Below the pieces are notes generated by a model. It did not search any database and had not been told where the DNA came from. It worked only from the letters and a program-made list of their open reading frames with translations. Of a DNA stretch of 64,000 bases, positions 17,665 through 36,068 are shown piece after piece. The position numbers and the translations under genes are program-made. This DNA is from Oceanispirochaeta sp. (GTDB lineage: Bacteria > Spirochaetota > Spirochaetia > DSM-2461). Where the stretch lies: contig CAXXOA010000001.1 of NCBI GenBank assembly GCA_963666275.2, positions 864,001 through 928,000 of the forward strand, in the 5' to 3' direction. The first letter of the stretch is position 1. Every line of letters starts with the position of its first letter.

Positions 17665-18114
17665 ATGGGAGAACCTCAAGTGGACCAGAACCAATTAGAT
17701 CAAATTGGAGATTTTGTAAAAAGTCATCTTGGACAGTGGATACAGGAACAGAATATTTCTCTTTTTCCAGTAAGAGATAAGTCCCTTGATAAGGAACTTC
17801 TGGAAAGAATGATCCGGGTGGAAGAAGGTTTGAAAAATCAGATGGAACTGACCCGTCAGGGATTTGAAAATATGGAGAAACGTTTTATTGAACGTTTTGA
17901 AGCTGTTGATAAAAGGTTCGAGGCCGTGGATAAACGCTTCGAGGCCGTGGATAAGCACTTTGAGGCCGTGGATAAGCACTTTGAGGCCGTGGATAAAAGG
18001 TTTGAAGATATGCAGCACTATATGGACAAGCGTTTTAATGTTCAAACATGGATTATCAGTGCAGGTTTCGCCATGATGACAATACTGATGTCTCTCTATC
18101 GGTTCTTTGGTTAA
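17665..18114 (+). CDS. Coiled-coil heptad-repeat protein with C-terminal TM helix
   Basis: GGAG RBS; (K)RFEAVD repeats; hydrophobic C-terminus. An alternative start exists at 17641. Confidence 0.75.
   Translation: MGEPQVDQNQLDQIGDFVKSHLGQWIQEQNISLFPVRDKSLDKELLERMIRVEEGLKNQMELTRQGFENMEKRFIERFEAVDKRFEAVDKRFEAVDKHFEAVDKHFEAVDKRFEDMQHYMDKRFNVQTWIISAGFAMMTILMSLYRFFG
17893..18006 (+). repeat. 21-bp in-frame tandem repeat, 5 copies plus a partial copy
   Basis: Unit like cactttgaggccgtggataag, encoding (R/H)FEAVDK. Confidence 0.9.
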
Positions 18115-18201: not shown

Positions 18202-19082
18202 ATGAAACAGAAAATTTCTGCCTCCCTTAACGAGGCATTCGGCTTCGACTCCTTCCGGAAGGGCCAGGAGGATGTGATAACAAAAATATTAAGCGGAGAC
18301 TCGGCGGCGGCTATTTTTCCCACCGGGGCGGGGAAGTCCCTCTGTTATCAGCTGCCGGCTCTGCTGCTGCCGGGAATGACTCTTGTTGTCTCTCCTCTCC
18401 TGTCCCTGATGAAGGACCAGCTGGATTTTCTGAGTTCCAGGAACATACCCGCCGCCAGGCTGGATTCGTCTCTGAGCAGTGAAGAGTACAGTTCCGTCAT
18501 AGCCAGGGCCTCCCGGGGGGATCTCAGAATCCTGATGATATCGGTGGAGCGTTTCCGTAATGAGAGGTTCAGGAATTATCTGAAAAATATGAGGATTTCG
18601 CTCCTCGCTGTTGATGAAGCTCACTGTATTTCCGAATGGGGGCACAACTTCCGCCCCGAGTATCTGCGTCTTCCCGAATACAGAGCGGAGTTCGCTATAG
18701 AGCAGGTACTCCTGCTGACTGCAACGGCAACACGGTCTGTGGCAGATGATATGTGCCGGAAATTCAGGGTAAAACCGGAAAACCTTGTGTCCACAGGTTT
18801 CTACAGGGCCAATCTTCATCTGGCAGTGATTCCCCTGGAAAGGTCGGAAAAAAGAGATAGACTTCTTCAGGATCTTTCAGAACAACCTGATGCGCCTTCG
18901 ATTGTCTATGTGACCCTTCAGAAAACAGCGGAAAATCTGGCCTTCTGGCTGAAAGAACAGGGTGTGGATGCTTCTTCCTATCACAGCGGTATGAAAAATG
19001 ATGAGAGGACGGCCATACAGAACCGTTTTATGCAGGGAGAACTGAACTGCGTTGTTGCCACCATCGCCTTCGGGATGGGGAT
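18202..19082 (+). pseudogene. recQ: RecQ-family helicase, 5' half, interrupted by the island
   Basis: PTGAGKSLCYQLP, VDEAHCISEWGHNFRPEY, LTATA and VVATIAFGMGI; the native continuation is at 35567. Confidence 0.9.
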
Positions 19083-19428
19083 AAACAAGCCCAATGTTAC
19101 GCATTGTAGTGCACTACGATCTGCCCAAAAATGTGGAAAATTATTACCAACAGATTGGCCGGGCCGGATGTAACGGACTGGATTTCCACTGCCTGCGGCT
19201 CTTCAATAACGGCGATAACTGCGGCAGCTGATCTCCTATCAGGAAGAATACGGGCTGCTGGATAAAGAAGCTCTGGAACGGGCCATGAATCTGGATGAGG
19301 AATTACGGAATAGGATCGCAAGACTCATCGAAATCCTGGGAGAAGGCCGTTTGAAGCAGATTCAGCAGGAACTGGGCGACCAGGTGAATATGAATCAGCT
19401 GAAGATGATGGTTCTTTGGAACACATAA
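19083..19428 (+). pseudogene. Degenerate 3' remnant of a second, different recQ
   Basis: After a frameshift it reads [23 protein letters not shown], then in another frame a C-terminal HTH-like tail LIEILGEGRLKQIQQELGDQVNMNQLKMMVLWNT*. Confidence 0.75.
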
Positions 19429-19530
19429 TTCCTCAGAATAGGTAGGGATTAACGACAGGCTTAAGACAACACTCGACATCATTCTGTAAATATAGTAAAA
19501 TAAAAGACCGATTTTTTATGGAGGCTGATA

Positions 19531-20268
19531 ATCAGCAAAGAGCAAAGAACCTTCCAATCAGGGGATCCCCGAAAAAACCGTTTACTATCCGTTTTGCCGG
19601 AAGCTGATTATAACCGGATTGCCCCTCACCTGGAATTGATAACCTTCTCTTTGGGAGACGTTCTCTACGAATCGGGCAGCCAATTCAATTATGTCTATTT
19701 TCCCACCACTGCCATTATCTCGCTGCTATCGTTGATGGAGAACGGTTCTTCTGCCGAAATATCCATTGTCGGGTTTGAAGGAATTGTCGGCATTGCCCTT
19801 TTTATGGGCGGAGAAACCATGGCTAATCGAGCTGTTGTGCAGAGCGCCGGGATGGCCTTCCGACTGAATGGTCGACTCCTGAAGCAGGAATTCAACCGCG
19901 CCGGACCCTTTCAGCATCTGCTGCTTCGCTATACCATGGCCTTTATCGCCCAGATGGCACAGACTGCCGTTTGTAATCGCCACCACTCGATAGACCAGCA
20001 ACTCTGCCGCTGGCTGCTGCTCAGTCTTGATCGTCTACCTTCGAACGAACTGAGCATGACCCAGGAACTCATAGCAAACATGCTTGGAGTGCGCCGTGAA
20101 GGTGTCACTGAAGCCGCAGGGAAACTACAGAACGCCGGTCTGATTGATTACCATAGGGGACGTATTACCGTATTGGACAGACCTGGGCTTGAAGCCCGGG
20201 TTTGTGAATGCTATGAAGTGGTTAGGAATGAGTTTGCCCGTTTACTTCCTGACTCTATTGCGGAATAA
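19531..20268 (+). CDS. Crp/Fnr-family transcriptional regulator (start uncertain: ATC/ATA near 19528-31, or TTG at 19594)
   Basis: cNMP-binding-like domain and HTH MTQELIANMLGVRREGVTEAAGKL. The family-typical N-terminus DPRKNRLLSVLP lies upstream of the TTG. Confidence 0.9.
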   Translation: MSKEQRTFQSGDPRKNRLLSVLPEADYNRIAPHLELITFSLGDVLYESGSQFNYVYFPTTAIISLLSLMENGSSAEISIVGFEGIVGIALFMGGETMANRAVVQSAGMAFRLNGRLLKQEFNRAGPFQHLLLRYTMAFIAQMAQTAVCNRHHSIDQQLCRWLLLSLDRLPSNELSMTQELIANMLGVRREGVTEAAGKLQNAGLIDYHRGRITVLDRPGLEARVCECYEVVRNEFARLLPDSIAE

Positions 20269-20449
20269 TCCTTCTCATCAAATTTTCCTTTAGTATATCG
20301 AAGGCTGCAGGCATGGTGAGACCGAAATCCGCCAAGCGGACATGAACCCGTCCGTCCACCGCCCAGACTCGTTCAAGTTCTTGCAAGGGAGTCAAAGCAA
20401 TTCCCCGTCACATTAACATCATTCAAATATATTCCTGCAAAGTTCATCG

Positions 20450-20495
20450 GTCTGTTCGCTTTCGAACAGACTGGAGCCAAAAAAAAGAATACCTT
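20450..20495 (+). promoter_or_regulatory. Palindromic operator 1 plus -10 box (class II Crp-like promoter)
   Basis: GTCTGTTCG-CTTT-CGAACAGAC (20450-71), then 18 bp, then TACCTT. Confidence 0.75.
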
Positions 20496-20528
20496 TAGAA
20501 GTATCAGTTAACAAAAAAGGAGATTGAT

Positions 20529-20795
20529 ATGGAAATCAATGAAGTAAGTAAAACGGCAAAAAGTAGTTTCGGGTCCTTCTTATCGAACAAACCCCTCTGG
20601 GCATTCTGGATCGCCTATACCCTTCTGTGCGCAATGCTATTCGGTATTTTTTATGGAGTTATCTATCTTATGGCACAGTTATGGTGGGTTCCTGTAATAG
20701 CCATCATTGTCATCGGGATGATTTGGGGAACTCTGGCATATACCCCGGAAAAAATTTTACCTGAAAAGAACGAAACGATGACGAATAATGTTTAA
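20529..20795 (+). CDS. Small two-TM membrane protein
   Basis: AGGAG RBS; 88 aa with two hydrophobic helices. Confidence 0.7.
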   Translation: MEINEVSKTAKSSFGSFLSNKPLWAFWIAYTLLCAMLFGIFYGVIYLMAQLWWVPVIAIIVIGMIWGTLAYTPEKILPEKNETMTNNV

Positions 20796-20849
20796 GAAGT
20801 CTTTTTGCAGCGAGTCCTTCGAAATATTCCAGGAGCAAAGGATTGATTT

Positions 20850-23399
20850 ATGAATGGAAAACACAATTTTGATGAAGTTCGCAAAATTGCTTATCCCACA
20901 ATTTCCCATGAACTGCTGGAGATAATATGTACAGGTAAAGAAGCAACGAATGAACAGAAAAAAGAAATTGCGGCTATTTCCCATGACTTGGGCAAAAATT
21001 ACTATCCCGAAATTCTGTTTCTGTTAACCTTCAATGAAATAGATAATCCGCAATTGGCCGAAAAGATCTGCCGTAAAATAGCCGTGCATAAAAAGAGCCT
21101 GGAAGAAAAAATCGGAAGACCTATTCTCCTGGAACTTGCGGCTAGAGACTATATTCAATGTAACCACCATGCAGACTCTTCCCTTATGAGAAATCAGGGG
21201 AAAATAATTACCCAAATAGCCAGACAGGCCATAAGAGACAATAATACCAACTGTTTTACTGCAGTACAGCTCCAAATCGATTTACAAAAAGAAATTGATC
21301 GATCTTATCGATATGGATCAACTTTTTCCATTATTATGATCGATTTAGACAATTTTAAAAGAATAAATGATTCCTTTGGCCACCAAAAGGGAGATCAGGT
21401 ATTACAATTTTTTGCTTCTCTCATAGAGGAGCATCTTCGGAAACCGGACAATCTCTATCGTTTCGGGGGAGACGAATTCCTCATTCTTCTTCCACAAACA
21501 AATATCAAAGGGACAGGTCAAATAGCCGATAAGCTGATTAAGCTTTTAAATACCACCACATGCGAAACCATTGATCAGACCATATCGATCAGTATGGGAA
21601 TCTCATCTTTTGAAAATAATCATGGTCACAGCCGCGAAGAAATAATAAAGAATGCAGACCAGGCTCTTTTCAAGGCAAAAAGTGAGGGGAAAAACCAAAT
21701 TGCTCTCTGGATAAATGGAAAATGTGAAATATTGGATTCTGGAAAAGATGCCTCACCCCAAAAACCGGCAGAAAGGAATATTAAAATCTCCTGCCATAAG
21801 ATTATACCTGGATGTGCTATCGGCCGTATATTTATTTTTGATGACAATTTCACCAGCCGAGTCAGGCAATACGATATAAAAGAGAACGAAAAAAAAGAGG
21901 AGCTGGAAAGAATAAAGAGGGCCATTAGCAGTGTTGCCGATGATCTATCAAAAATGGAGAGTAATGTAAATGAAGAATTAAATAAGGATCATGGGGCCAT
22001 TTTTCTTGTCCATAAAATGATTCTTCAGGATATTTCCATCATAAATGACATAGAAACGGAATTAGGCGACAGGTTACTGAATGGAGAGATAATCGTTAGA
22101 GATATTTTTCGGAGACTGGAAAAAAGGTTTCTCCTTTTTGAAGATGAGCAACGCCGGGAAAAGGCAAAAGATATAAGGGATATTGCCGGTAGACTAGTTA
22201 GAAAGCTTCAAGGGAAGGACCATAATATCCTTTCATCACTTCCGAAAAACACCATTCTCGTATCTCAAAGACTTCTCCCTTCTGATACGGTATTTATTGA
22301 TAAAAAACATGTAAAGGCGATCATCACTGGTGAAGGCAGCCGTGGTTCACATTCTGCTATACTGGCCCGTGCATTGGGCATTCCCTATGTAACCATCGAT
22401 AGGAAGATTGATATACTGCCCAATAAATCTCATGTGATTGTAGACAGTGATGGCAGAACCATATTCATTAACCCCGATGCGATTCTTTCAGATAAGTACA
22501 AAGAGCGGATAAAAGAGGAATCTAAAGAAAATCAGGAGCAGGATATTTCCTGGGAACCCATCGAATTCGGTGGAAGAAAGATATCGATATTAGCCAATGT
22601 TTCCTCTGAAGAGGAAGCCCTTGATGCCCTGTCATCCCATGCGGAGGGTGTGGGTCTATTACGGGTGGAAACCATATATTTATCCAGTCAGATTATGCCT
22701 GATGAGGATTTTCTTCTGTCCCGTTTCATGGAGATTCTAACTCCTCTCAAAGGAAAAGAGATAACCATCAGACTGCTGGATATAGGATCGGATAAAGTTC
22801 CTTCCTATCTGGATCTGGGGAATGAAATTAATCCGGCTCTGGGGCTCAGGGGAATCCGGCTTCTCCTGAAACATAAAAAACTTCTCAAGACTCAGCTATC
22901 CGCCTGCATCAGACTGAACAGAGAGATCCCTGTGAAAATTTTGCTACCCATGGTTTCACTCCCCTCGGAAGTACGGACCGTACGTCACTTAATGAAGGAA
23001 ATCGAGGGAGGGGGAAATATTCAAATAGGGGCGATGATAGAAACGCCAGCATCTTTGTTTCAATTGGATGAGATTATTGAAGTATCAGACTTTATCAGCG
23101 TGGGAACAAATGATCTGTTTCAGTACACCATGACTGCAGACAGGGAAAACAATGAAGTGGCAGAGTATTTTGACAAGGGCTTCCAGATCCTGGAAAATAC
23201 GATAGAGGAAATATTCAGGAAGTCCAGAGAAGCGGGTAAAGACTGTACCGTCTGCGGAGAAATAGCGGGAGACAGCGACCATATTTATGCCATGCTGAAA
23301 AAGGGTCTTACCCAGTTCAGTGTATTACCCAACCTTATTAAGAGGGTCAGGCGGGAAATCTTCGATTACGCTGAGAAAAGCAAGGAGACTACTTTGTAG
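20850..23399 (+). CDS. GGDEF domain-PTS Enzyme I (PtsI/PtsP-like) fusion
   Basis: RKPD..RFGGDEF followed by EI motifs GSHSAILARALGIP, NPALGLRGIR, MIETP, GTNDLFQY and VCGE. Confidence 0.9.
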   Translation: MNGKHNFDEVRKIAYPTISHELLEIICTGKEATNEQKKEIAAISHDLGKNYYPEILFLLTFNEIDNPQLAEKICRKIAVHKKSLEEKIGRPILLELAARDYIQCNHHADSSLMRNQGKIITQIARQAIRDNNTNCFTAVQLQIDLQKEIDRSYRYGSTFSIIMIDLDNFKRINDSFGHQKGDQVLQFFASLIEEHLRKPDNLYRFGGDEFLILLPQTNIKGTGQIADKLIKLLNTTTCETIDQTISISMGISSFENNHGHSREEIIKNADQALFKAKSEGKNQIALWINGKCEILDSGKDASPQKPAERNIKISCHKIIPGCAIGRIFIFDDNFTSRVRQYDIKENEKKEELERIKRAISSVADDLSKMESNVNEELNKDHGAIFLVHKMILQDISIINDIETELGDRLLNGEIIVRDIFRRLEKRFLLFEDEQRREKAKDIRDIAGRLVRKLQGKDHNILSSLPKNTILVSQRLLPSDTVFIDKKHVKAIITGEGSRGSHSAILARALGIPYVTIDRKIDILPNKSHVIVDSDGRTIFINPDAILSDKYKERIKEESKENQEQDISWEPIEFGGRKISILANVSSEEEALDALSSHAEGVGLLRVETIYLSSQIMPDEDFLLSRFMEILTPLKGKEITIRLLDIGSDKVPSYLDLGNEINPALGLRGIRLLLKHKKLLKTQLSACIRLNREIPVKILLPMVSLPSEVRTVRHLMKEIEGGGNIQIGAMIETPASLFQLDEIIEVSDFISVGTNDLFQYTMTADRENNEVAEYFDKGFQILENTIEEIFRKSREAGKDCTVCGEIAGDSDHIYAMLKKGLTQFSVLPNLIKRVRREIFDYAEKSKETTL

Positions 23400-24241
23400 T
23401 TTTATTCAACTCATTCCATAAATGGCTGCAATAGTAAATGGACATATGATCCTCAACGTCTCTATACGTACCAGTTTATTCAGACCAACAAAATAATGCT
23501 TCCATTCTGTAACGGAACGCCCGACATATCTTTTAAATATACTCATTTTAGACCAAAAGCCGGTATGGTTTTTCCGTCTTCTCATTTTGTTTAAAGTAGA
23601 AAAGGTTCTATTAATTTGCTTCAGGATAGTTTTCCCCATTATTTTCCTTTGACCGGCGAAATCAGGTTCTTCTTTATCCATAACGATGTGTCCCTCTTCT
23701 GATATATACACCAATGTTCCTAAATGGCTGAAATTAAAATCGATTTTAGGTAAATCAGGTGGAACAAGAGGAACTGGGTCATCATGATTCACAATTCTCC
23801 AACTTGTTTTAGCGGCTGAAAGAGCAATGAGTTCCTGGTCACCAAAGCGGGGAGCCCCAAAGGTATACAGACCAAAACTGGAGTCATGTTTGGTAAAGGC
23901 TAAACCAGCAAGGGCTCCGCCAAGACTATGCCCTGTAAACCATAAAAATCTCTTGGGGTTCTCTTCTATAAGCTGGTCCAGAAAGATCTTTACTCCCGTT
24001 GGATTTTCCCAAACACTATCTAAAGCCTTTGCAAATCCTTGGTGAACCTTACCGCCCTGTTCAAGATGACAATAGGCCAGGAAAGAACATTCAGAAAACC
24101 ACCATGCATTAACTGGTGAATAGTTTGTTTTTTGATTTGAAGAGGAAATTTTTCTCCATTTTCGAAATAAACATAATTCATATCAGGAGGTAATTCCGGA
24201 TTTTCAGGAACATCTTTATAACGGATTTTTGGCAATGTCAT
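23389..24241 (-). pseudogene. Class 3 lipase pseudogene
   Basis: KVHQGF, GHSLGG, YTFGAPR, VNHDDPVPLVP and DHMSIYY are spread over shifted frames (shifts near 24135 and 23465). Confidence 0.8.
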
Positions 24242-24395
24242 TTTAGTCAAACTTTTCTCCTGTAGAGTTTTACATCCCTTGGGCAAGAACATCTCAACTT
24301 CAGAATGCCCTGTTTGCTTTATCGCATTTCTCCTATAACTCTGACCAAAACTATTTGGATTGTTCCTATGGTCCCACCTTGTTTTTCATAAAGAC

Positions 24396-25142
24396 CTACC
24401 TGGATTTACCCTGATTTGCCACAGCCGCTTCTGCTTTGGCAATTTCTTCGGAGTTTCCGATGTAGTAATGCCTGATTGGTTTGAGATTGTTGTCCAGTTC
24501 GTATACCAGCGGAACACCGGTCGGAATGTTGAGCTCGACGACTTCCTCTTCAGAAAGCTTGTCCAGGTATTTGACCAGGGCCCGCAAACTGTTGCCATGA
24601 GCGACAATGACAACTCGTTTGCCCGACTTGACCACCGGGGCGATTTTTTGGTCCCAATAGGGCCACACACGGCCGAGGGTTAGTTTGAGCGATTCGGTCG
24701 CCGGTAGTTCGACGGGCGTCAGCCTATCATAACGGCGGTCAAATCGGGGATGTCTTTCATCATTCTCTCCCAGTCCAGGAGGTGTAATGCTAAAGCTGCG
24801 GCGCCAGATTAGGACCTGTTCATCGCCAAACCTGGCGGCTGTATCGGCTTTATTCAGCCCCTGGAGGGAACCGTAGTGGCGTTCATTTAATTCCCAGGCC
24901 CGGATCACGGGAATCCATTCCAGGTTGAGCTCAGACATCACCGACCATAAGGTTTTAATAGCGCGCTTCAGTACGGAAGTAAAGGCTGTGTCAAAAGTGT
25001 ATCCTCCACAGCGCAATACGTCTCCCGCCTTTTGGGCTTCCACGAGGCCCTGAGCGCTTAAGTCCACATCTGTCCAGCCGGTAAAGCGGTTTTCCAGGTT
25101 CCAGGTGCTTTGTCCATGACGAATCAATACGAGTTTATGCAT
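24396..25142 (-). CDS. gpmA: 2,3-bisphosphoglycerate-dependent phosphoglycerate mutase
   Basis: [37 protein letters not shown] and LNIPTGVP; 248 aa. Confidence 0.95.
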
Positions 25143-25155
25143 TTTAAGTTCTCTA

Positions 25156-25515
25156 CTAGTCTTCACGGGTCTGAAGCCCAAAGATTCGACAACCTTTTTT
25201 CATTCGTCCATACATGTTTCTTTTCTTCATCCGCGATGAGAAAAAAAAATGTATTTGTTCAGAATTTTCTAACGCCTTTGATTTCCCTGTATAAAAGCTG
25301 ATGCTCATTTTCTCAATATCCAGGTATTTTCTGTAAAGATCATCCTGAGAGATATCGATATTGAATATATTCTTATCCTTTTTCAAGTCAACAAAACACG
25401 TGATATCTGTTTTTTTTAATATAGTTTCAGGAACAGTTTCTACAAAACAATTAACCAGCCCTGCTTCTCCTGCCAATACACTGGATAGCTCTTTATTCCC
25501 TTGTACATTAGTCAC
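25156..25515 (-). CDS. Hypothetical protein (possibly a gene remnant)
   Basis: GTG start after AGGAGG; no family recognised. Confidence 0.45.
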
Positions 25516-25578
25516 GGTTACCTCCTAAATCATTTAATAATTAATCAATCCTATACAATCCGCTATCTGGATTAACTC

Positions 25579-25649
25579 AGTATATGGTCTTTCCACTGGA
25601 TAAGTCTGTGCGTTATCGAACAGACAGGAACAGCCATGAGGATTATCTT
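25579..25649. promoter_or_regulatory. Palindromic operator 2 between divergent operons
   Basis: GTCTGTGCG-TTAT-CGAACAGAC (25604-25). TATCTT lies 18 bp away on +; TATACT lies 19 bp away on -. Confidence 0.75.
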
Positions 25650-25689
25650 GAATACAGAAACAGTTATTGAATAAGAAACGGGAGCGGTT

Positions 25690-28479
25690 ATGTATATTTT
25701 GTTATTTTTAATAATATTTATTTTTGAAGGCTTGCTGATCATCGGCGGTTTCAGGAAAAAAAGAAAAATCTTAAAAATTTTAGGCACTGTACTTCTTACC
25801 ATCACTTGTATATTTTTGTGGTTCATGGGGTTTTGGGCCGATAAATTATGGTTTCAATCACTGGGGTTTATTGACAGATTCTGGACTGAATTTACAGTAA
25901 AACTAGGCTTTGGAATAGTTTCGTTCCTTATGGGCGGCATATTTATGTCCCTATTACTCATTCGTGTAAAAAAGCTCGGGACAGAAATAAAGACCTTTAT
26001 CACGGTCGGTACAGCGCTTATATCAGGATCAATTGGTACAGGTTTATGGGATGAGGCTCTTCTGTTCTTTAACAGAGTTCCTACAGGAACTATTGATCCG
26101 GTATTTGGCCTTGATGTTTCATTCTATATTTTTAGTCTTCCGTTTATTGCAGGCGTACATAAACTGTTAATGAACCTTTCTTTCATTTCCACAATAGTTG
26201 GATTATCGATCCTCGTTATAAGAACCAGAATTACTCTGACAAGTGGAATTATTCAACAAGAGCCTATTGATGATACAGAAAAGGAAACTTCCGGTCCTTT
26301 TTTAGTCGGATCAGCACTCTTGATTCTGTTTTCTGCTTTAGGATTGATAATTCGGCGTTTTCAGCTGTTATACAGCTCTGGAGGTACCGTAAACGGTCCC
26401 GGTTGGACTGAAGTTAATATTAGATTTCCGGCCATGATGGTCGCAGCACTAATAGTTGTTCTTGGGATGTTTTTTATTATCATACCAGGTTTAAGAAAAG
26501 TTAGTGCTTCTCCCTTGAAAAAGTTTAAAAAGTTAAATGAATCATTAAAATCTGTGGGTGTCGTTTTAATGCTGACCACTGTCCTTTGTATTCTGATTAT
26601 CGGAATTATTCCGGGAGTCATTCAGGCCCTGATTGTAGCACCCAACGAGATAACTTATGAACAGCCGTATATTGAAAGAAATATAGAATTCACAAGACGT
26701 GCCTTTAAGCTGAGCCATGTTCAGGAGAAAGAATATCCAATGGACTCAGTAGAATTCGACCGCAGCATTATTGAAGCGAATTCCGCGATAATCAACAATA
26801 CAAGGTTATGGGACTGGCATGCATTGAGTTCAGTGTATCAACAATTTCAGGAAATAAGACTGTATTATAAGTTCGGCGATATTGATATGGATCGCTATGA
26901 GATAAATGGTGAAAAAAGAGCCGTAATGGTTTCCGCCAGAGAAATGGAGTTGTCCAATTTAACGGCCCAGAGTCAGAACTTTGTCAATGAACGCTTTAAA
27001 TACACACATGGTTACGGTATAGCTATGAATACCGTAAATGAATTTACTGCCTCCGGGCTACCCCACCTTCTTATAAAGGACATTCCACCGGTAAGTGAAA
27101 CTTCAGGTCTCGAGGTTACCAGGCCAGAGATTTATTATGGAGAAAGAACGAATTCCTATGTTATTGCCAACAGCAGCGAAAAGGAGTTTGATTTTCCCCA
27201 GGGCGACAAGAATAGCTATGTTAACTACGCAGGCAAAGGCGGAGTCGAGATCAGTAACTTCTTTAGAAAATTCATTTACGGCTTTAAATATAGCAGCACA
27301 AAACTTCTCTTCTCAAATTATCCTCAAAATGACAGCAGGATACTTATGAACAGAAATATAATGAAACGTGTTCAACTTGCCGCTCCATTTCTTAAATTCG
27401 ACAGCGATCCCTATATTGTTTTAATCAATGGTGAGCTCCTATGGTTTATAGATGCCTATACCACCTCAACCAATTATCCTTACAGTGAGCACTTTTCAGG
27501 AACCCTTGACGGTGGAACTATAAGCACACAGGGCCTTTCAAGAGGCATCAACTATGTGAGGAATTCCGTTAAGGCTGTAGTGAATCCATACGATGGGAAA
27601 ATGGATTTCTACATCTATGATGAAGAAGATCCTGTAATAGACGTATGGAACAAAATATACCCAGGTTTGTTTAAACCCAAAGCAAGCATGCCCGATGAAC
27701 TAAAAGAGCATGTAAGATACCCTGCAGATTTCTTACTGATACAGGGTGAAATTTATGCAAAATATCACATGACTGTTCCGGAGGTCTTCTATAACCAGGA
27801 AGATATCTGGGTCCGTGCGACTGAAAAATATTACAGTGAAGTACAGCCTGTAGAGCCCTATTATATTATGTGGGAACGTCAGGGTGAAGATAAGCCTGAA
27901 TTTATTATTATGCTTCCCTACACACCTAAAAACAAGCAGGTTTTGATAGGTTGGATTGCCGGTATGAGCGATCCCGAGCACTACGGCGAGTTAATCGTCT
28001 ATAAGTTTCCAAAAGATAAGAGAGTTTTAGGCCCTCAGCAGGTTGAAACGAAAATAGATCAGGACAGTTTTCTGTCGGGACAGCTATCCCTTTGGGATCA
28101 GAGGGGGTCGAATGTGATCAGAGGGAATATCCTTGCTCTACCGCTTGGAGGAACATTGCTTTATGTTGAGCCCATTTATCTACAGTCGGAGACTGCGGCT
28201 TATCCTGAATTGAGGCTGGTAGTACTCATGCACAATGACAAAATATCCTATGCCGAAACACTTGAGAAAGCCCTCACCGGTCTATATAAAGATTCTGTAC
28301 CTATGGTTCAATATGTAAATACCGGAAATGATAATACCGGAGGCGAGACACAAACCCTGTTAAAGCAGGCCGATGAAGCATTCAGAAACTACCTGGAGGC
28401 AACCGGTGAAGGGAATTTGAGAAAAGCAGGTGAAGAGCTCCAACGATTAAAAGATCTTTTTGAGAATATGCCGGAATAA
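25690..28479 (+). CDS. UPF0182 family membrane protein
   Basis: DKLWFQSLGF, DPVFGLDVSFYIF, RLWD, FQEIRLYYKF, YTHGYG and NYVRNSVKAVV motifs; 929 aa. Confidence 0.93.
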   Translation: MYILLFLIIFIFEGLLIIGGFRKKRKILKILGTVLLTITCIFLWFMGFWADKLWFQSLGFIDRFWTEFTVKLGFGIVSFLMGGIFMSLLLIRVKKLGTEIKTFITVGTALISGSIGTGLWDEALLFFNRVPTGTIDPVFGLDVSFYIFSLPFIAGVHKLLMNLSFISTIVGLSILVIRTRITLTSGIIQQEPIDDTEKETSGPFLVGSALLILFSALGLIIRRFQLLYSSGGTVNGPGWTEVNIRFPAMMVAALIVVLGMFFIIIPGLRKVSASPLKKFKKLNESLKSVGVVLMLTTVLCILIIGIIPGVIQALIVAPNEITYEQPYIERNIEFTRRAFKLSHVQEKEYPMDSVEFDRSIIEANSAIINNTRLWDWHALSSVYQQFQEIRLYYKFGDIDMDRYEINGEKRAVMVSAREMELSNLTAQSQNFVNERFKYTHGYGIAMNTVNEFTASGLPHLLIKDIPPVSETSGLEVTRPEIYYGERTNSYVIANSSEKEFDFPQGDKNSYVNYAGKGGVEISNFFRKFIYGFKYSSTKLLFSNYPQNDSRILMNRNIMKRVQLAAPFLKFDSDPYIVLINGELLWFIDAYTTSTNYPYSEHFSGTLDGGTISTQGLSRGINYVRNSVKAVVNPYDGKMDFYIYDEEDPVIDVWNKIYPGLFKPKASMPDELKEHVRYPADFLLIQGEIYAKYHMTVPEVFYNQEDIWVRATEKYYSEVQPVEPYYIMWERQGEDKPEFIIMLPYTPKNKQVLIGWIAGMSDPEHYGELIVYKFPKDKRVLGPQQVETKIDQDSFLSGQLSLWDQRGSNVIRGNILALPLGGTLLYVEPIYLQSETAAYPELRLVVLMHNDKISYAETLEKALTGLYKDSVPMVQYVNTGNDNTGGETQTLLKQADEAFRNYLEATGEGNLRKAGEELQRLKDLFENMPE

Positions 28480-28488
28480 AAGGGGAGA

Positions 28489-30441
28489 ATGATCATGTAT
28501 AGGAAAAAGAGCAATAAAGATTCCCTGGAATACGCAGAGAATATTCTCAATACTATTCGTGAACCCCTCATTGTTCTGGATCAGAATTTGAGGGTGATTT
28601 CAGCAAACAGTTCTTTTTTTAAAGTTTTCAGGGAAGAGCCTGATGAAACCCTGGGGCAGCTGATTTATAACCTGGGCAATCATCAATGGGATATTCCTCA
28701 ACTGCGGGAGTTACTGGAGAGGATTCTTCCTTTAGAGCAATCCTTTGATAATTATAAGGTTGAACATCATTTCAATACACTCGGCCGTCGTATTATGTCA
28801 TTAAATGCACGGAAGATTGAACGTAAAAAGGGAAAAGAGGAAATCATTCTTCTGGCGATTGAGGATATCACAGAGAAGGAAATGGCCCAACTCGCCCTTG
28901 AAGACTCAGAAGAACGATTTAGGCGATTATTTGAAACGGCGAAAGATGGTCTTTTTCTTTTAGATAAGAAAAACGGTCAAATCGTTAATGCGAATCCGGC
29001 GATTTGCAAGTTGTTGGGTTATACACAAAAAAAAATCATCGGTAAGTCACTTCACGACTTTCATTTTTCTATGGTCCTTGATGATTTTTACATCCTGTTG
29101 GAACATTTAATTATTCATGGCTTTATTTCCTATAATGACATTTTTGTACAAAATAAGCTAGGGACGCCAGTTAGCATCGATCTTCAAATCATTGACAGGT
29201 CGAGGTTTATTCAATGTAATTTCCGCGATATCACTGCTCGCAAGATTGCCGATAAAGAAAAGGCAATCCTTACAGATCAACTCAATCAGGCGCAGCGCAT
29301 GAAAACCGTTGGGGTTTTGGCGGGTGGGATTGCCCATGATTTTAACAATATTCTGTCCATTATTATTGGCAATGCAGAACTAGCCCTCAATGATATTTCT
29401 CCTGAAAACCCGGTCAAAGAAAATATGGAAACAGTACTGGCCGCTTCCATACGGGCAAAAGACCTGGTCAGCCAGATACTCACCTTCAGTCGGAAGGATA
29501 AAGCAATGCTTATTCCACTGTGGCCCCAGCCTCTCATTAATGAAACCTTAAAGCTCTTACGTTCGGCAACACCTGCCACCATTTCCATCATTCAGAATAT
29601 ATCAAAGGATTGCGGAATGATTATGACAGATATAACCCAATTCCATCAGATAATAATGAACCTTTTTGGGAATGCCGTCCAATCTATGAATGAGAAAGGT
29701 GAAGTGATAGTCAGTTTACAAGAAGTGAATTTGAATAATAAGGATTTTAGTCATTTTTCAAAAATGTCGCCCCTAACAATAAAAGCCCCGGGAGCTTTTG
29801 CCCGATTCTCCGTGGCTGATTCTGGAAATGGAATCGGACCGCACATAATGAAACATATCTTTGAACCTTTTTTCACCACCAAGAAGGTGGGAGAAGGAAC
29901 AGGCATGGGTTTGTCAGTGGTTCATGGCATTATTCAAAGCCAGGAAGGATTCATTACCGTTGAAAGCGAAGAAGATAAAGGAAGTACCTTCAGTGTGTTC
30001 CTCCCGATTACACACAACGAAGAAACGCATCATGTTGAAGTAAAAAAAACTATTCTTACCGGTACGGAACGAATACTTCTTGTAGATGATGAAGAACTTC
30101 TTCTGAATATGACGGAACAATTACTGGAACAAATGGGATATACAGTGACTAGTGAAGAAAGGAGTATAAAGGCTCTTAAAATTTTCAAGACAAACCCGGA
30201 AAACTTTGATCTTGTAATCACTGACCAGTCCATGCCAGAGATGTCCGGGGGAGAACTAGCATCCCAAATATTGAAAGTGAGACCGGAGATGCCCATTATT
30301 CTGTGTAGCGGATACAGCTCAAAAGTATCTGAAGAAAACTATAGAGACACTGGAATCGCTATGTATCTGAATAAACCCTATAACAGAAAAGCATTATCCG
30401 GAACGGTCAGGAAAGTATTGGACGGAAAAGGTTCAAAATAA
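28489..30441 (+). CDS. Cytoplasmic PAS-PAS hybrid histidine kinase
   Basis: Two PAS domains, GGIAHDFNN, HATPase and a C-terminal REC domain (LVDDE, TDQSMP). Confidence 0.92.
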   Translation: MIMYRKKSNKDSLEYAENILNTIREPLIVLDQNLRVISANSSFFKVFREEPDETLGQLIYNLGNHQWDIPQLRELLERILPLEQSFDNYKVEHHFNTLGRRIMSLNARKIERKKGKEEIILLAIEDITEKEMAQLALEDSEERFRRLFETAKDGLFLLDKKNGQIVNANPAICKLLGYTQKKIIGKSLHDFHFSMVLDDFYILLEHLIIHGFISYNDIFVQNKLGTPVSIDLQIIDRSRFIQCNFRDITARKIADKEKAILTDQLNQAQRMKTVGVLAGGIAHDFNNILSIIIGNAELALNDISPENPVKENMETVLAASIRAKDLVSQILTFSRKDKAMLIPLWPQPLINETLKLLRSATPATISIIQNISKDCGMIMTDITQFHQIIMNLFGNAVQSMNEKGEVIVSLQEVNLNNKDFSHFSKMSPLTIKAPGAFARFSVADSGNGIGPHIMKHIFEPFFTTKKVGEGTGMGLSVVHGIIQSQEGFITVESEEDKGSTFSVFLPITHNEETHHVEVKKTILTGTERILLVDDEELLLNMTEQLLEQMGYTVTSEERSIKALKIFKTNPENFDLVITDQSMPEMSGGELASQILKVRPEMPIILCSGYSSKVSEENYRDTGIAMYLNKPYNRKALSGTVRKVLDGKGSK

Positions 30442-30573
30442 TATTTCTTTCCTTCCAATCTGCCCTCCATTGGTATGAGGCTTAGAGCCCATTCTTCGCT
30501 CTCTATACTTCATTAACTGTATAAAGCCTTGATATCCGGTGAATATTTCCAAAGGTTTGCGATGGTCATCTTC

Positions 30574-32088
30574 CTAAGGGACGGACGCTGATATCATCGC
30601 GTTCAAACATTCATGTACATTTACAGTGGCAAAACTGGTTGAATAATCGCTCATTGCATAGGGGATAATCAATTCTCCATTATGTATGATGCTGCCGCAG
30701 GAATAGATAACATTGGGAACATATCCCTCCCTTTCTGTTTCGTTGGGTGACAACAAGGGGCTCGTCAAGCGGCCAATCACCTTGGATGGGTCCTTAAGAT
30801 CCAGTAAAAAGGCACCCAGGCAGTATTTCCGCATAGCTCCCACACCATGACTCAATACCAGCCAACCCGCTTCAGTCTCTATGGGGGATCCACAGGTTCC
30901 GATTTTAAACAGCTCCCAGTCCATAAAGGGCTTTAGCAGTATTTTGGGCGTTTGCCAGAAATGGATATTATCTGAAAACATCAGTGATATATTCTCATCA
31001 TCCTGACGGGACAGCATGGCGAATTGATGGTTTATTTTTTTGGGGAACAGGGCCATTCCTTTATTTTGAACGGCTGGACCGTTCAGTGTTATGAATTTAA
31101 ATTGGAGAAAATCCTTGGTCTCCAGTAATTGAGGAATGGTTAATTTTCCATCATAGGCCGTATAGGTTGCATAATAGGTACAGCTGAGGTCTTCATCTTG
31201 AAACCGGACAAAACGGGCATCTTCGATCCCATTGTGTTCTGTAGGACCTCTGGGAAAGAGAATCCTCTGCGAAAAGGGGCTTTCGGAGTCAAAACATACT
31301 TCATAATTGGATTTGGCCAGTAACAGAATACCATGGAGACTTCTATCGGCTATGGTATCCATGGGGTTCATTTTCTTTCTTTCTGTTTTAAGCAGAATAC
31401 AAAGTTCATCCATGGTGAAATATTCGGGAAGAGAATCCATCACTTTTCGGCAGAAATGATTGTGCAGTCCCGCTTCCCCTAGTTTTCTGAAGAAGAGATC
31501 TTTTTTATACTTGAAATGAGGTAAATACTCGGGTTCGCAAATATAAGGGCCATGAGGTATGAGTGTTATTTCTTTTTTTGCGTTTATCCGGCCTTCCCGA
31601 AAGGTGATTGAAGATATATGCCCCTCTCCTATGGCTCTTAAGCTGAGAATGAAGCGGATTGAATCCTCAGGTAAATCGGTCTGATCCGGATGAATGACCA
31701 GGGATGGATTCAGTAAGGCTGCTGACTCCGGTGAATATTCATGGCAAAAATAAGCTCCTATAAGAGTTTTACGCTTATCAGAGATGTGAAGATCATCATG
31801 TATATAGTCCATTATTTCTTTATAGCGATTATCGAATGACTTCTTTATATCCAGATGTCTGTCTTTGAATTCCTTAATCACCTCGGTCAGTTTTGTGGAA
31901 ACCTCTGACTCCGAAAGAGACTGAATCCTAGAGATAATATGACGTGTAATGGATTTATTTCCAGCGGAAAAGGCTCTGATCAGCACATGTGATCTTTCCG
32001 GGATAAGTGTGGGGCCAATCCTTCTGGCATTCACTACAGGTCTATTCTCCACATCATTTAGATTCCTTGGTAAGGCCGTTTTTTTCAT
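30574..32088 (-). CDS. GH130-like glycosidase/phosphorylase
   Basis: LSLRAIGEGHISSI, NGIEDARFV, NKGMALFP and EREGYVPNVIYSCG. Confidence 0.85.
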   Translation of the reverse strand: MKKTALPRNLNDVENRPVVNARRIGPTLIPERSHVLIRAFSAGNKSITRHIISRIQSLSESEVSTKLTEVIKEFKDRHLDIKKSFDNRYKEIMDYIHDDLHISDKRKTLIGAYFCHEYSPESAALLNPSLVIHPDQTDLPEDSIRFILSLRAIGEGHISSITFREGRINAKKEITLIPHGPYICEPEYLPHFKYKKDLFFRKLGEAGLHNHFCRKVMDSLPEYFTMDELCILLKTERKKMNPMDTIADRSLHGILLLAKSNYEVCFDSESPFSQRILFPRGPTEHNGIEDARFVRFQDEDLSCTYYATYTAYDGKLTIPQLLETKDFLQFKFITLNGPAVQNKGMALFPKKINHQFAMLSRQDDENISLMFSDNIHFWQTPKILLKPFMDWELFKIGTCGSPIETEAGWLVLSHGVGAMRKYCLGAFLLDLKDPSKVIGRLTSPLLSPNETEREGYVPNVIYSCGSIIHNGELIIPYAMSDYSTSFATVNVHECLNAMISASVP

Positions 32089-32101
32089 ATTCCTGACTTC
32101 C

Positions 32102-34378
32102 CTAAGATTTCAGTTTAAAACTGATAAGTTTGCTTTTTAAAAGATACATTTCTTCCTGAGAGAGGAGAAACGCCAAGGTCGATTCAGCCCCCTGATTCTG
32201 GCTAAGTCTGTCTATGTGAAGCCCGTCTCTGCAGCCTCCGCTTTCAGGATCGTACATGGGCTGTTCCAGATCGTTCCTTCCTAAAAACCATTCAAAAACC
32301 ATCCGGGCTTCTTCTGCCCAATAAATTTCTCCGGTTGTATTGAAAGCCTCAATACATGCTGAAATCGTAGCCTGGGCTTCAATAGGTTGCTGGTCGAAAA
32401 GAGCTTTGTCCTTGCCCTTTGGATAGAATCCGTTTGATCCGATTGCATGAAAAACCCCATTATCGGATTTCTGTATGGACAGAAGCCAGGAAAGTGTTTC
32501 TATTCCTTTATCTACGGCCTCCTTATTATTCATCTCTCTTCCGCTGCTGATCAGTGCGTGAGATAATTTTGCATTGACATAAGTGACCCCGTCCTCAAAC
32601 CAGGGCCAGTCAGGGGATGCGGCATCATTCAGCCTCTGCATCAGCTTCTCCACCAGTTCAACCCTTATCAATTCCGCTCTGCGGTCTCCGCTGAATTGGT
32701 GCAGATATTCATTTATACCAATAAGGGTAAAGGCCCAGGCCCGGGGTGATGTAAAACTGGTAACCACGGGTAAAGCGATTTCAAATAGACTGGCCGCCAG
32801 GAGCTGAAAGCGCTTATGCCTTCTGTGGCCCATGGACATTCCCAATGCCCAAAGAGCCTGGCCGTGGCAGTCTTCTGAGCCTGGCTGGTCTATCCAATTT
32901 CTATTGAAGTTCATGAAATTGCGGAATCGTTTGTTCGCGTGATCAAAGGCATGATTCAGAAAGGCTGCATAGACCACTGCCAGCTGATTGCTTTTATAAG
33001 TGCAGCGGCCTGTCCGTTGCAGAAGCAGTGTATATAGAAAGGCCCTGGCGTTGTCATCGGTACAATAGCCATGTTCAAAATTGGGAACTGTAAAGGATGC
33101 ATGCTGAAATATCCCTGTGGAATCACTTAAATTATAAAGATGATCAAGATTTAAAAGAGGCAATAAAGTAGGAAACTTATCCAGAGAAATTATGACCGAA
33201 GGTTGCCTGTTTTTTGAAGGATAGATGGAACAGGCTTCATCAAAGGTTTTCATATATTGCCTGGCAACAGAACTCCACGTCATGGTCCGTCCCAGTATAA
33301 AGGCGTCTTTTCTCATTTTATGCCGTTGGGATGAATGGGATAATAATTCAATGGCTGCATCCGAAATGGCCTTATAATCACAAAATGGCACCAGTAGTCC
33401 TCTGCCCTCGGCCAATAATTCACTGGCATGCCAGTAGGGCGTGGAAATAACAGCATTACCTGTACCAAAGGCGTATGCCAGGGTTCCTGAGGTGATTTGC
33501 GCTTCTGTCAGATAGGGTGTTAGGTATATATCGCTGGAACCGATAAAGCGTAGCAATTCATCCAATTCCACAAAGCGATTGATAAAAACAACGTTTTTTT
33601 GAATCTCAAGGTTTTTTGCCAACAATTCCAAACTGAGTCGGTAAAGCTCTCCGTCCTTCTTTAATAAATGGGGATGTGTCTGCCCTACTACAATGAATAC
33701 CGTATTGGGAAATTTCTCAAGAATCTGTGGCATGGCCTGCAGGCCGTATTCGATCCCCTTGTTGGGAGAGAGCAGGCCAAAGGTAAGAATAACCTGTTTC
33801 CCCGCCACGCCGAACTCATCCTTGAAATAATTGGGATCGGCAAAGGGAATATCGGGAATTCCGTGGGGGATCAGACTAATCATATCCTCCGATGCACCAT
33901 AGACGTTTTTCAGTATTTCCTTTCCCTTTAAGGTCATAACAATGAGCCGGGAGGATAATTGAATGATTTCAAGCATGACTTTCATCTGGTCGGGATTGGG
34001 AGATTCAAGCAGAGTATGGAGAGTGGTGGCTATAGGCATCTTCAATATATGCATAAGAGCCAGAATATGGCTTCCCGCATCACCGCCATAAATACCGAAT
34101 TCATGCTCTATGCAGACCATATCGACATTGGCCATATTCAGGAAATCAGCTGCCCTGAGATAGGAATTCAAATCCTGTTCCATGATTTCAAACCTTACTT
34201 CTTCAGGATAATCATAACCATCAGGAATATCGTTCACAGGAACGACAAGACATTTTTTTTCTGGGAACTCCTGTGATAGGGATGTACATAAATCCTTTGT
34301 GAAAGTTGCTATTCCGCACTTTCTCGGTAGATAATTGCCGATAACGGCGATTTTTTTAATCTCGGTATTTTGCTGCAA
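32102..34378 (-). CDS. GT4 glycosyltransferase with C-terminal six-hairpin-like domain
   Basis: PRKCGIATFT, HEFGIYGG and SGTLAYA; C-terminal GYCTDDNARA and NQGAESTLA. Confidence 0.88.
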   Translation of the reverse strand: MQQNTEIKKIAVIGNYLPRKCGIATFTKDLCTSLSQEFPEKKCLVVPVNDIPDGYDYPEEVRFEIMEQDLNSYLRAADFLNMANVDMVCIEHEFGIYGGDAGSHILALMHILKMPIATTLHTLLESPNPDQMKVMLEIIQLSSRLIVMTLKGKEILKNVYGASEDMISLIPHGIPDIPFADPNYFKDEFGVAGKQVILTFGLLSPNKGIEYGLQAMPQILEKFPNTVFIVVGQTHPHLLKKDGELYRLSLELLAKNLEIQKNVVFINRFVELDELLRFIGSSDIYLTPYLTEAQITSGTLAYAFGTGNAVISTPYWHASELLAEGRGLLVPFCDYKAISDAAIELLSHSSQRHKMRKDAFILGRTMTWSSVARQYMKTFDEACSIYPSKNRQPSVIISLDKFPTLLPLLNLDHLYNLSDSTGIFQHASFTVPNFEHGYCTDDNARAFLYTLLLQRTGRCTYKSNQLAVVYAAFLNHAFDHANKRFRNFMNFNRNWIDQPGSEDCHGQALWALGMSMGHRRHKRFQLLAASLFEIALPVVTSFTSPRAWAFTLIGINEYLHQFSGDRRAELIRVELVEKLMQRLNDAASPDWPWFEDGVTYVNAKLSHALISSGREMNNKEAVDKGIETLSWLLSIQKSDNGVFHAIGSNGFYPKGKDKALFDQQPIEAQATISACIEAFNTTGEIYWAEEARMVFEWFLGRNDLEQPMYDPESGGCRDGLHIDRLSQNQGAESTLAFLLSQEEMYLLKSKLISFKLKS

Positions 34379-34548
34379 TGTTCACTCGATATGTGTCTGA
34401 GTTTCAGCAGAAACTCGCATAATATAAAGCAGGGCATATGAAAGGTTTAAGCATGTAGTTAATACTTACCTCTAAAATCAAGCGCAAGATAAGGATTATC
34501 TTTCTGTTTGAAGGATAATCATTTCTTGTCTTCTTAATGTAAATATAC

Positions 34549-34650
34549 TCATTTAATCCTTAATGAACAAATCTTTCCTCCTATCCCAATGACCTCAATA
34601 ACGTTTCCACATATTTCACATCTGTAAATCTGTTTTTTTTCAGTAGTCAT
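34549..34650 (-). pseudogene. Truncated desulfoferrodoxin/desulforedoxin-like N-terminal fragment
   Basis: GGAGG RBS; MTTEKKQIYRCEICGNVIEVIGIGGKICSLRIK* has the first CxxC but lacks the CC pair. Confidence 0.6.
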
Positions 34651-34701
34651 TTTAATCCTCCAGGATTTTTATCATTGATTCCAGCCTGATCGGGAGCGAA
34701 A

Positions 34702-35454
34702 TCAGGTTGTTACTTTCTCGACCCAGTAACCCACGCGATTGTAATGACCATGCAGTTTCCCCTCATAATCCCGTGAAAGCATCTTTTTCCCGGTGTATTC
34801 AGGCGACTCTTTAACGGTCTCACGGTTAAGATTAACAATAACCTTCATTTCATCCCAACTGACCCGTTCTATCCATTTTGGAGAAATCAGCACTTTCCTA
34901 CCGGGCAACCAATTTCGTGTATCCACTACCAGATAACGGATTTTCCAGGTCTCATCATGTAGAATGTAGTCTTCCACATGACCTATTTCTCCGTCCTTAG
35001 CCTGAATGTGATATCCCTGTACCGCGTAGTAACTGCGTAAATGTGGGTTCCAGGATTTTCCCGCCCTATTTTTTGACCCTATTTCTGGGTGAGGAACCAT
35101 GAAAGACTCATTACCCCAGGTGTATGATCCGTACCAATATACAGGCCATCCGTAGTACTCGTAGTAGGATTCTTCGAATTGCTGTGAGACCGGCTTATCG
35201 TTCTCCAACGAGGGACTGCCCTCAATTTGTTTCTTCGTCAAATCGACGGCTACCTGACGCTTGTCCTCATTCATGGACAGCAATGCATAGGGTGAGATTA
35301 ATACACGTCTTTCCTTCAGCCAGTTTCCGGTATCTACCACCAAATAACGGACGGCCCAGTGCCGGTCATCAAAATAGAACTCCTTAACCTTTCCTATTTC
35401 TCCATCTCGGCTTTGTAATGTGTAACCTGTCAAATCTTTTACAGTTGTCAACAT
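34702..35454 (-). CDS. Tandem PRC-barrel domain protein
   Basis: Two repeats of DGEIG.V..F..DD..W..RYLVVDT.NWL..R.VLISP; ATG at 35454 after GGAGG. Confidence 0.9.
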   Translation of the reverse strand: MLTTVKDLTGYTLQSRDGEIGKVKEFYFDDRHWAVRYLVVDTGNWLKERRVLISPYALLSMNEDKRQVAVDLTKKQIEGSPSLENDKPVSQQFEESYYEYYGWPVYWYGSYTWGNESFMVPHPEIGSKNRAGKSWNPHLRSYYAVQGYHIQAKDGEIGHVEDYILHDETWKIRYLVVDTRNWLPGRKVLISPKWIERVSWDEMKVIVNLNRETVKESPEYTGKKMLSRDYEGKLHGHYNRVGYWVEKVTT

Positions 35455-35482
35455 AAAGCGATACCTCCAATTAGTTAGTATT

Positions 35483-35528
35483 ACGATAATGAATATCAGA
35501 GGGTTCGTCTGTTCGATAGCGCACACTG
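35483..35528 (-). promoter_or_regulatory. Palindromic operator 3 plus -10 box
   Basis: On the minus strand: CAGTGTGCG-CTAT-CGAACAGAC (35528-35507), then 18 bp, then TATCGT. Confidence 0.75.
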
Positions 35529-35558
35529 AAGGATGTTTTACATAAGAAAATGTCCGGC

Positions 35559-36068
35559 ATGGGGATCGATAAAAAAAATATCCGCCGGGTCATACACTTT
35601 GATCTGCCGAAATCCATTGAAAACTACAGTCAGGAGATCGGCCGGGCCGGACGGGACGGGCAGAAGTCTCTCTGCCGGGTTTACAGTGATATAAGCAATC
35701 TTTCTGTGCTGGAAAATTTTGTCTATGGGGATACTCCCGACAGACAGGCCGTCCGGAGGATCCTTTCTAGGATCAGAGAGTGTGACAAACTATGGGAAGT
35801 CAAACTCTCCGAGTTAAGTCGGGATTCCAATATACGGACTCTGCCTCGGCTGGATGAAAAAGGAGTGGCCGGACTGCTTGAACAGTTCCTGCCCCTGTCC
35901 GGGCAGGAGAGAACCTCTGCCAATCTGGCTAAATTCCTCTGCGGCATCAATATGCCCTTTTTTACCTCTATCAGAGCAAAAACTCTGGGAGGTTTCGGGA
36001 GTCTTGAGAAATATCCCTTCGCACAGGTCCGGGATTTTCTGGAGGAGACTCCCTTCTGGAAGGAGTGA
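35559..36068 (+). pseudogene. recQ: RecQ-family helicase, displaced 3' half, probably with an internal deletion
   Basis: [34 protein letters not shown] (motifs V-VI). The sequence after SNIRTLP (~35846) seems short for the family. Confidence 0.85.

Follow-up and report, generated by a model that had tools for sequence, protein, structure and literature searches.

We analysed a 64,000-nucleotide stretch of the genome of Oceanispirochaeta sp. (assembly GCA_963666275.2, contig CAXXOA010000001.1, positions 864,001 to 928,000; hereafter the window, numbered from its first letter), in which a block of ~16.5 kb interrupts a host recQ gene and carries a Crp/Fnr-type regulator gene (crp), three 22-bp palindromic boxes and the cargo genes beside them. 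An earlier note on this DNA had described the block as a self-contained, portable regulon whose Crp protein activates the cargo through the boxes. We found the three 22-mers where that note had placed them: box 1, GTCTGTTCGCTTTCGAACAGAC, at 20450..20471, box 2, GTCTGTGCGTTATCGAACAGAC, at 25604..25625 between two divergent gene groups, and box 3, GTCTGTTCGATAGCGCACACTG, at 35507..35528, ~25 nt inside the right junction of the block. Each is accompanied, in the direction of the following gene, by a TAnnnT hexamer 18 nt from the site edge: TACCTT after box 1 (20490..20495, forward strand), TATCTT after box 2 (25644..25649, forward) and TATCGT beside box 3 (35483..35488, reverse). The opposite-strand hexamer reported for box 2 is also present (TATACT, 25579..25584, reverse, 19 nt to the left of the box), and when these candidate -10 hexamers are set at positions -12 to -7 the centre of the site falls at -41.5, as had been proposed. 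Contigs from the short-read runs X1 and X3, which probably derive from the assembly's own sample, have identical letters over all three sites. A second opposite-strand candidate had been overlooked, TATATT (20426..20431, reverse), 18 nt to the left of box 1 and facing the 3' end of crp. The same layout occurs in two other crp loci (our L011 and L125) and three more spirochaete loci, and in none of the non-spirochaete loci having a box just downstream of crp; it may represent antisense control of crp or, equally, a relic of a lost divergent promoter or gene.

To define the motif, a spaced-palindrome search was run de novo, with the window left unused, on 80 loci around relatives of the Crp protein plus one contig of a family member, grouped as 33 spirochaete and 48 other loci with two shuffles per set. 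The top two patterns in the spirochaete loci were TCTGT-N10-ACAGA (17 copies in 15 loci, 0 in shuffles) and GTGCG-N4-CGCAC (19 copies in 16 loci, 1.0 in shuffles), and the latter also ranked first in the other loci (48 copies in 31 loci, 3.5 in shuffles). Both sets converged on GTCTGTGCGCTAGCGCACAGAC, with 66 sites in 28 of the 33 spirochaete loci and 189 sites in 44 of the 48 others. The distance to TAnnnT was concentrated at 18 nt (38 spirochaete and 77 other cases) and 19 nt (22 in each set), with at most 8 and 11 cases, respectively, at any other offset. The family consensus, TGT(G>T>A)CG-N4-CG(C>A>T)ACA, is wider than the one that the earlier note had derived from the three boxes. An extended -10 (TG) was dropped as a promoter feature, being found in only 7 of 65 and 2 of 87 cases. 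Masking by open reading frames (ORFs), tried as a measure of intergenic placement, put 44 of the 66 and 130 of the 189 sites within frames of at least 100 codons on either strand, and was uninformative with shadow frames counted. A strict 18-bp palindrome was too narrow as a marker, matching 17 of 401 genomes of the phylum, with only the present genome matched twice.

When the 5.27-Mb genome was scanned with a position weight matrix built from these other genomes, which has GTCTGTGCGCTAGCGCACAGAC as its consensus, the three sites of the block ranked first to third (26.4 bits for box 2, 23.9 for box 1 and 21.7 for box 3), and matrices from either the spirochaete or the other loci gave the same three leading places. 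The fourth-ranked site in the genome (20.5 bits) has no TAnnnT at 17-20 nt. Besides the boxes, the best score within the block is 5.8 bits or less, and its three sites of at least 20 bits compare with 0 in 100 shuffles. Perfect copies of the core TGTKCG-N4-CGMACA number three in the genome, all of them in the block, with 13 one-mismatch copies elsewhere. With one mismatch allowed, the window contains the core three times, while shuffled sequence has it 0.11 times on average and none of 100 shuffles reached three; such core-pattern counts, for window and genome alike, are circular, the pattern having been drawn from the sites themselves.

The crp gene (19531..20268, forward) encodes a protein of 245 amino acids with the recognition helix RREGVTE and with matches to the Pfam families PF00027 (cNMP_binding) and PF13545 (HTH_Crp_2) above cut-off, which places it in the CRP/FNR superfamily. 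Its structural model (predicted local distance difference test score, pLDDT, 75) has the CRP fold and matches GlxR, CRP, NtcA and Clr at E ~1e-10; among the matches listed, no solved structure exceeds ~21% identity. It is the only hit above weak level for the Crp family in the whole genome, and its branch is very large, with at least 7,993 members among 8,000 scored candidate clusters passing E<=1e-60. E72 together with R82-S83 is given as the cyclic AMP (cAMP) phosphate-binding signature in the available text of PMC10187061. That signature is absent here, the GlxR segments GELS..PRTS aligning to G-IAL..TMPN, and cyclic mononucleotides are therefore an unlikely effector as judged from the sequence. 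Nor are the helix and site those of cAMP-CRP (RETVGR; TGTGA-N6-TCACA), being REGVTE and TGTGCG-N4-CGCACA. FNR proteins have an N-terminal cysteine cluster and bind TTGAT-N4-ATCAA; in the island Crp the N-terminal region contains no cysteine, the conserved cysteines lie in AVCNRHH, LCRW and a C-terminal CECY, and the box differs.

Translation of crp probably starts at a non-AUG codon, ATC at 19531, which lies 6 nt after a GGAGG (19520-24) and was judged by comparing starts across relatives. The called TTG start would cut the conserved PRxNxLL motif, and the stretch leading from the ribosome site to the conserved N-terminal motif contains no ATG, GTG or TTG. At this codon many relatives have ATG, GTG or TTG, and in five close spirochaete relatives, loci L012 and L014 have ATC, L013 and L131 ATA, and L015 ATT; an in-frame standard start is found nearby in L012, L013, L014 and L131, and none in the window or in L015. 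That the ATC might be a strain-specific lesion was rejected because ATC, ATA or ATT recurs in relatives at the same codon and with the same ribosome-site spacing. Initiation is weak at codons of this type. The candidate promoter of crp is sigma70-like (TCGACA-17-TAAAAT, 19473..19501, forward, matching the consensus at 10 of 12 positions) and lies 30 nt upstream with no box nearby, the best box score upstream of the gene being 2.2 bits; the promoter scan that gave it was at chance level overall.

Structural work on CRP assigns R180 to a contact with G2, and E181 to one with the cytosine paired with G4, of the TGTGA half-site (available text of PMC10187061). The helix REGVTE of the island protein retains this R and E, with R185 replaced (E stands at that position). 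At a Burkholderia plasmid locus, Crps with S or A in place of the helix E are accompanied by boxes having A or C at the corresponding base. We extended this comparison with 78 metagenome loci around the plasmid Crp, using a site pattern that is neutral at the tested base and dropping no locus. With E in the helix, 199 of 320 half-sites had G at box position 7 (from 160 sites in 80 of 113 loci); where only S, P or A was found, G occurred in 2 of 84 half-sites and A in 65 (from 42 sites in 25 of 46 loci, with two labels mis-parsed). The 18/19-nt spacing was kept in both groups. By analogy with the CRP structure, the covarying base is the one predicted. About two dozen of the loci carry a second paralog type, with the helix RRVG.

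Homologs of the regulator were detected in none of 10 congeners, in 3 of the order's 37 other genomes and in 4 of 400 sampled genomes of the phylum. Of 37 Crp-positive spirochaete genomes, 29 have a box followed by TAnnnT at the expected spacing (reversed control 3 of 37); of 39 Crp-negative relatives, 2 do (reversed control 7 of 39), one of these being the congener G005, where the match is a genuine boxed promoter. Three Crp-negative relatives have the GGDEF-enzyme I fusion gene that follows box 1 in the window, and in none of them does a box lie upstream of it; this gene and one UPF0182 fragment were the cargo that allowed a comparison with and without the Crp. We think it most improbable that another island-borne factor or a host regulator reads the boxes. 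An orphan box in the congener G005 and the RRVG paralog type would fit such a reader, but the island gene is the sole Crp-family hit of any strength in the genome, perfect boxes are confined to the block, and the box base tracks the helix residue of the Crp.

We consider it quite probable, from the sequence comparisons, that the palindromes are operators of the island Crp, whose dimer would bind at -41.5 and switch on the neighbouring sigma70 promoters as class II CRP does. The direct basis consists of the sites, their spacing, their recurrence beside the regulator across phyla, in other spirochaetes and in proteobacteria, and the one-base/one-residue change, from which we infer class II activation. 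The architecture is that of class II promoters, with a symmetric site, a fixed distance to the -10, a centre near -41.5 and no consensus -35, and the 22 bp from the core to the second -10 base equal the class II spacing in the accessible part of PMC10187061. With respect to the earlier note, spacing, recurrence and helix-box covariation support the island Crp as the likely reader in class II geometry; its narrow consensus and its portable cargo did not stand. [quoted passage not shown] We give this very little credence: 0 of 5 boxed -10 elements are among the sigma70-like promoters with a usable -35 in a consensus promoter and terminator scan that was at chance overall (37 sigma70-like matches in the region, 37 expected), the 18/19-nt spacing is fixed over two phyla, as contact by an activator would require, and the relative BerA is an activator (available text of PMC3584217).

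Several observations weigh against the Crp-operator interpretation. Motif and spacing were trained on loci from 33 of the 37 Crp-positive genomes, and 3 of the 4 held out matched; 8 of the 37 have no box-plus-TAnnnT match, and, of the 4 other Crp-positive genomes in the set of 401, the strict 18-bp palindrome picked up just 1. G005 retains a boxed promoter with no such Crp found in an assembly that is 95% complete and in 360 contigs. The proteins lacking the helix E form one clade (50 rows, SH-like approximate likelihood ratio test 96, in a quick tree of every third of the first 81 loci with the helix columns left in), so that the covariation amounts to one evolutionary event and its P value should not be relied on. 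The crp gene has no upstream box, whereas one was present in 12 of the 30 spirochaete and 37 of the 46 remaining loci, and several genes in the block are broken. No TAnnnT lies 18-19 nt from the boxes around berA, the gene for BerA, and the Burkholderia multivorans counterpart of the BerA-bound bcam1330/1331 region shows a single box of 12-14 bits that misfits -41.5 from the published start offsets.

The condition of the block bears on whether the circuit still functions. Its left flank is the 5' part of the host recQ (18202..19082, forward; residues 1-~293, with 75% identity to the first 299 residues of RecQ in congener G004), which ends in the left junction ATGGGGAT (GMGI motif, 19075..19082, forward), repeated at the right junction at 35559-66. 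Beyond it lies what is left of another recQ-type gene, distinct from the host's and broken (19083..19428, forward), with a frameshift near 19098 and a C-terminal HTH_40 piece. The 3' part of the host gene resumes from the GMGI motif (35553..36068, forward) with an internal deletion of about residues 388-570, its junction spanned by a contig of X1. In congener G004 the 638-amino-acid RecQ is intact, its neighbouring genes are those seen here and the locus carries no box; residues 1-299 of that protein correspond to 18202-19098 of the window, and residues 291-387 to 35556-35846. An island is thus indicated by absence from the same site in G004, distinct composition (~42% G+C against 48%) and an 8-bp direct repeat at the ends. 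It likely entered by recombination between recQ homologs, as is suggested by its position at the GMGI motif, where both junctions carry ATGGGGAT, and by the piece of a different recQ into which the left one continues. Assembly error as a source of the junctions or of the recQ frameshift was unsupported, as short-read contigs span both junctions and show the frameshift. No integrase, transposase or relaxase was recognised among the block ORFs scanned, and no tRNA was found in the window. The earlier term 'self-contained' accordingly applies to regulation and not otherwise, in that no integrase or transposase was recognised and crp itself is unboxed. Outside the block, a 157-amino-acid ORF (17641-18114, forward), conserved in G004, contains six in-frame 21-nt repeats encoding FEAVDKR heptads.

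Decay is visible in a desulfoferrodoxin remnant, a shortened lipase gene and the 3' recQ deletion, and one may ask whether the operators are genuine by descent while the circuit here is a silent relic, with an ATC-start crp barely translated. The broken recQ pieces, the truncated desulfoferrodoxin and the shortened lipase would agree with this, as would the lack of a standard start in crp between ribosome site and conserved motif, its want of an autoregulatory box, and the orphan box of G005 standing before a truncated UPF0182 gene. On the other hand, neither crp nor the large cargo genes are broken, the three boxes are near consensus with exact spacing, and the occurrence of ATC, ATA or ATT at the same codon in L012, L013, L014, L015 and L131 marks the start as inherited and not as a fresh lesion. 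We regard a relic as improbable, and return to the Crp-operator interpretation.

Gene labels given in the earlier note (Crp, GGDEF-enzyme I, gpmA, UPF0182, hybrid kinase, PRC-barrel, GT4-type and GH130) agree with Pfam and NCBIfam. The first gene after box 1 encodes an 88-amino-acid hydrophobic protein (20529..20795, forward) and is boxed in all four other crp loci that hold it and in L125. After a 54-nt gap comes a fusion of a GGDEF domain with phosphotransferase system (PTS) enzyme I (20850..23399, forward), likely co-transcribed from box 1. It combines a diguanylate cyclase with a complete enzyme I, and the GGDEF motif, the RxxD site and the phospho-histidine are all intact here, the catalytic motifs being conserved across the family. 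This family is small, with 13 proteins at E<=1e-100 over the fusion region, one of them from Spirochaeta isovalerica, and it occurs in 3 of the 37 other genomes of the order. On the reverse strand follow a class 3 lipase gene (23406..24292), internally shortened relative to the L013 homolog, the gpmA gene for a 2,3-bisphosphoglycerate-dependent phosphoglycerate mutase (24396..25181; above the curated cut-off), and a 119-codon ORF (orf119) without family assignment (25156..25515, with GGAGG and a GTG start), which is the first gene to the left of box 2. Near 24127 the X1 and X3 contigs have one extra T, and the lipase frameshift there is probably an assembly error.

Rightward of box 2 lie genes for a UPF0182 membrane protein (25690..28479, forward), recognised in the Pfam and NCBIfam scan, and, 9 nt further on, a PAS-PAS hybrid histidine kinase (28489..30441, forward). 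The boxed promoter in G005 (L121, G005:C53, 2886-3883) resembles that of box 2 and precedes a 59-amino-acid ORF and the truncated UPF0182 gene, and this same small ORF is boxed and divergent from crp in L013. Next to box 3 is the gene for a double PRC-barrel protein (34702..35454, reverse; ATG at 35454 after GGAGG), which has no match in the 37 other genomes of the order. Behind it are a truncated N-terminal desulfoferrodoxin remnant of 33 codons (34552..34650, reverse), a GT4-type glycosyltransferase gene (32102..34378, reverse) beyond a 324-nt gap, and a gene for a GH130 phosphorylase-like protein (30574..32088, reverse); the latter two would be members of the regulon solely through inferred read-through.

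The earlier view that these genes form a portable regulon was not upheld, and its description of the regulon as stress-type has gene names as its basis. Among 81 crp-neighbour loci, UPF0182, GT4 and GH130 genes occur in none, full-length GGDEF-enzyme I and gpmA in one each, and PRC hits in three; in the sequences compared, regulator and box are portable and the gene list is not. Among the first genes behind boxes in other spirochaetes (28 of 44 scanned) are those for GH94 cyclic-glucan-synthase-type proteins, for DUF5670 and DUF3185 proteins, for glutathione peroxidase, a fatty acid desaturase and phosphoketolase, and for an OmpA protein. The Crp-positive genome G015 (L122, G015:C428, 346-8184) has a boxed ATP synthase cluster, beta-subunit-first, with a baeRF3 gene, and remnants of such a cluster follow crp in L013.

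If the Crp works as proposed, R and E at helix positions 1-2 would recognise G2 and G4 in the half-site TGTGCG, the role that R180 and E181 have in CRP. Box 1 would then drive the 88-amino-acid gene and the GGDEF-enzyme I fusion, box 2 the UPF0182-kinase pair rightward and orf119-gpmA-lipase leftward, and box 3 the PRC-barrel gene and, less surely, GT4-GH130. With its own promoter, no box and an AUC start, the regulator would stay at a low constant level, and it would be switched by a ligand other than cAMP. Our best single guess for that ligand, a tentative one made by analogy, is cyclic di-GMP (c-di-GMP) supplied by the boxed GGDEF-enzyme I as a positive loop; such feedback through a boxed gene is possible, and plausible because the GGDEF-enzyme I motifs are intact. 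More speculatively still, a large Crp branch that includes BerA and the regulator on pKLC102 might share an operator code, GT(G/A)CG-N4-CG(C/T)AC, set by one helix residue, and serve as a plug-in c-di-GMP activator that captures the genes behind its box; here the positive loop through GGDEF-enzyme I would be tied to phosphoenolpyruvate status, and the supply of regulator kept low by the inherited non-AUG start.

Class II activation by a dimer of the CRP fold is textbook knowledge; what is new is the specificity, its spread and possibly the ligand. One of the commonest CRP/FNR branches without a mapped site now has a testable operator and promoter design and a predicted residue-to-base rule, which would make the regulons of the branch readable from genomes in spirochaetes, proteobacteria and the pKLC102 cargo region, and which offers a candidate operator for BerA. 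We found no published operator matching this box in the literature, subscription papers, RegPrecise-type motif databases and most supplements being outside the search.

Among proteins that have been studied, the nearest is BerA (Bcam1349) from Burkholderia cenocepacia, which is 51% identical to the island Crp over 218 amino acids and has the same RREGVTE helix. BerA activates the bep exopolysaccharide genes. It is described in the available text of PMC3584217 as a DNA-binding activator whose binding to the promoters of bcam1330 and bcam1331 is enhanced by c-di-GMP. It differs in lying on a long separate branch of the tree, in being driven by RpoN and BerB (available text of PMC5552954) where the island crp has a sigma70-like promoter candidate, and in standing beside berB and the bep cluster where the neighbours of the island Crp are block cargo. 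We identified the berA ortholog in the B. cenocepacia record by synteny and by the RpoN site printed in the accessible part of PMC5552954; the strain compared has a differently arranged cluster. The 38 kb around berA contain three boxes of at least 17 bits against 0 in 100 shuffles. The available published BerA passages give no operator sequence; candidates for it are the box-like sites that two Burkholderia species have close to berB and berA (L130 reverse complement 24150, 32864 and 34120; L127 9350, 9414 and 18209). On pKLC102, whose Crp is 72% identical, five boxes reach 14 bits (shuffle mean 0.05), and five to six surround crp and the GH94 and desaturase cargo (L126 11057-17311).

With class II Escherichia coli CRP the island system shares the fold, a 22-bp site with a 16-bp core, the TGTG register, the equivalents of R180 and E181, and the centre at -41.5; it differs in its half-site TGTGCG, 4-bp spacer and local three-site regulon, as against TGTGA-N6-TCACA and a global regulon. 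Clr of Sinorhizobium meliloti (HGTYHC-N4-GRWACA; available text of PMC10187061) likewise has six-base half-sites, a 4-bp spacer and a conserved sixth position, but that base is C and here G, its helix is RPKVNR against REGVTE, it binds cAMP and cGMP, and identity is 16-17%. The cyanobacterial NtcA family is the sole NCBIfam hit of the island Crp (E 9.5e-5, far below cut-off; ~20% identity). NtcA activates from -41.5 with a bare TAnnnT -10, binding GTA-N8-TAC in response to 2-oxoglutarate.

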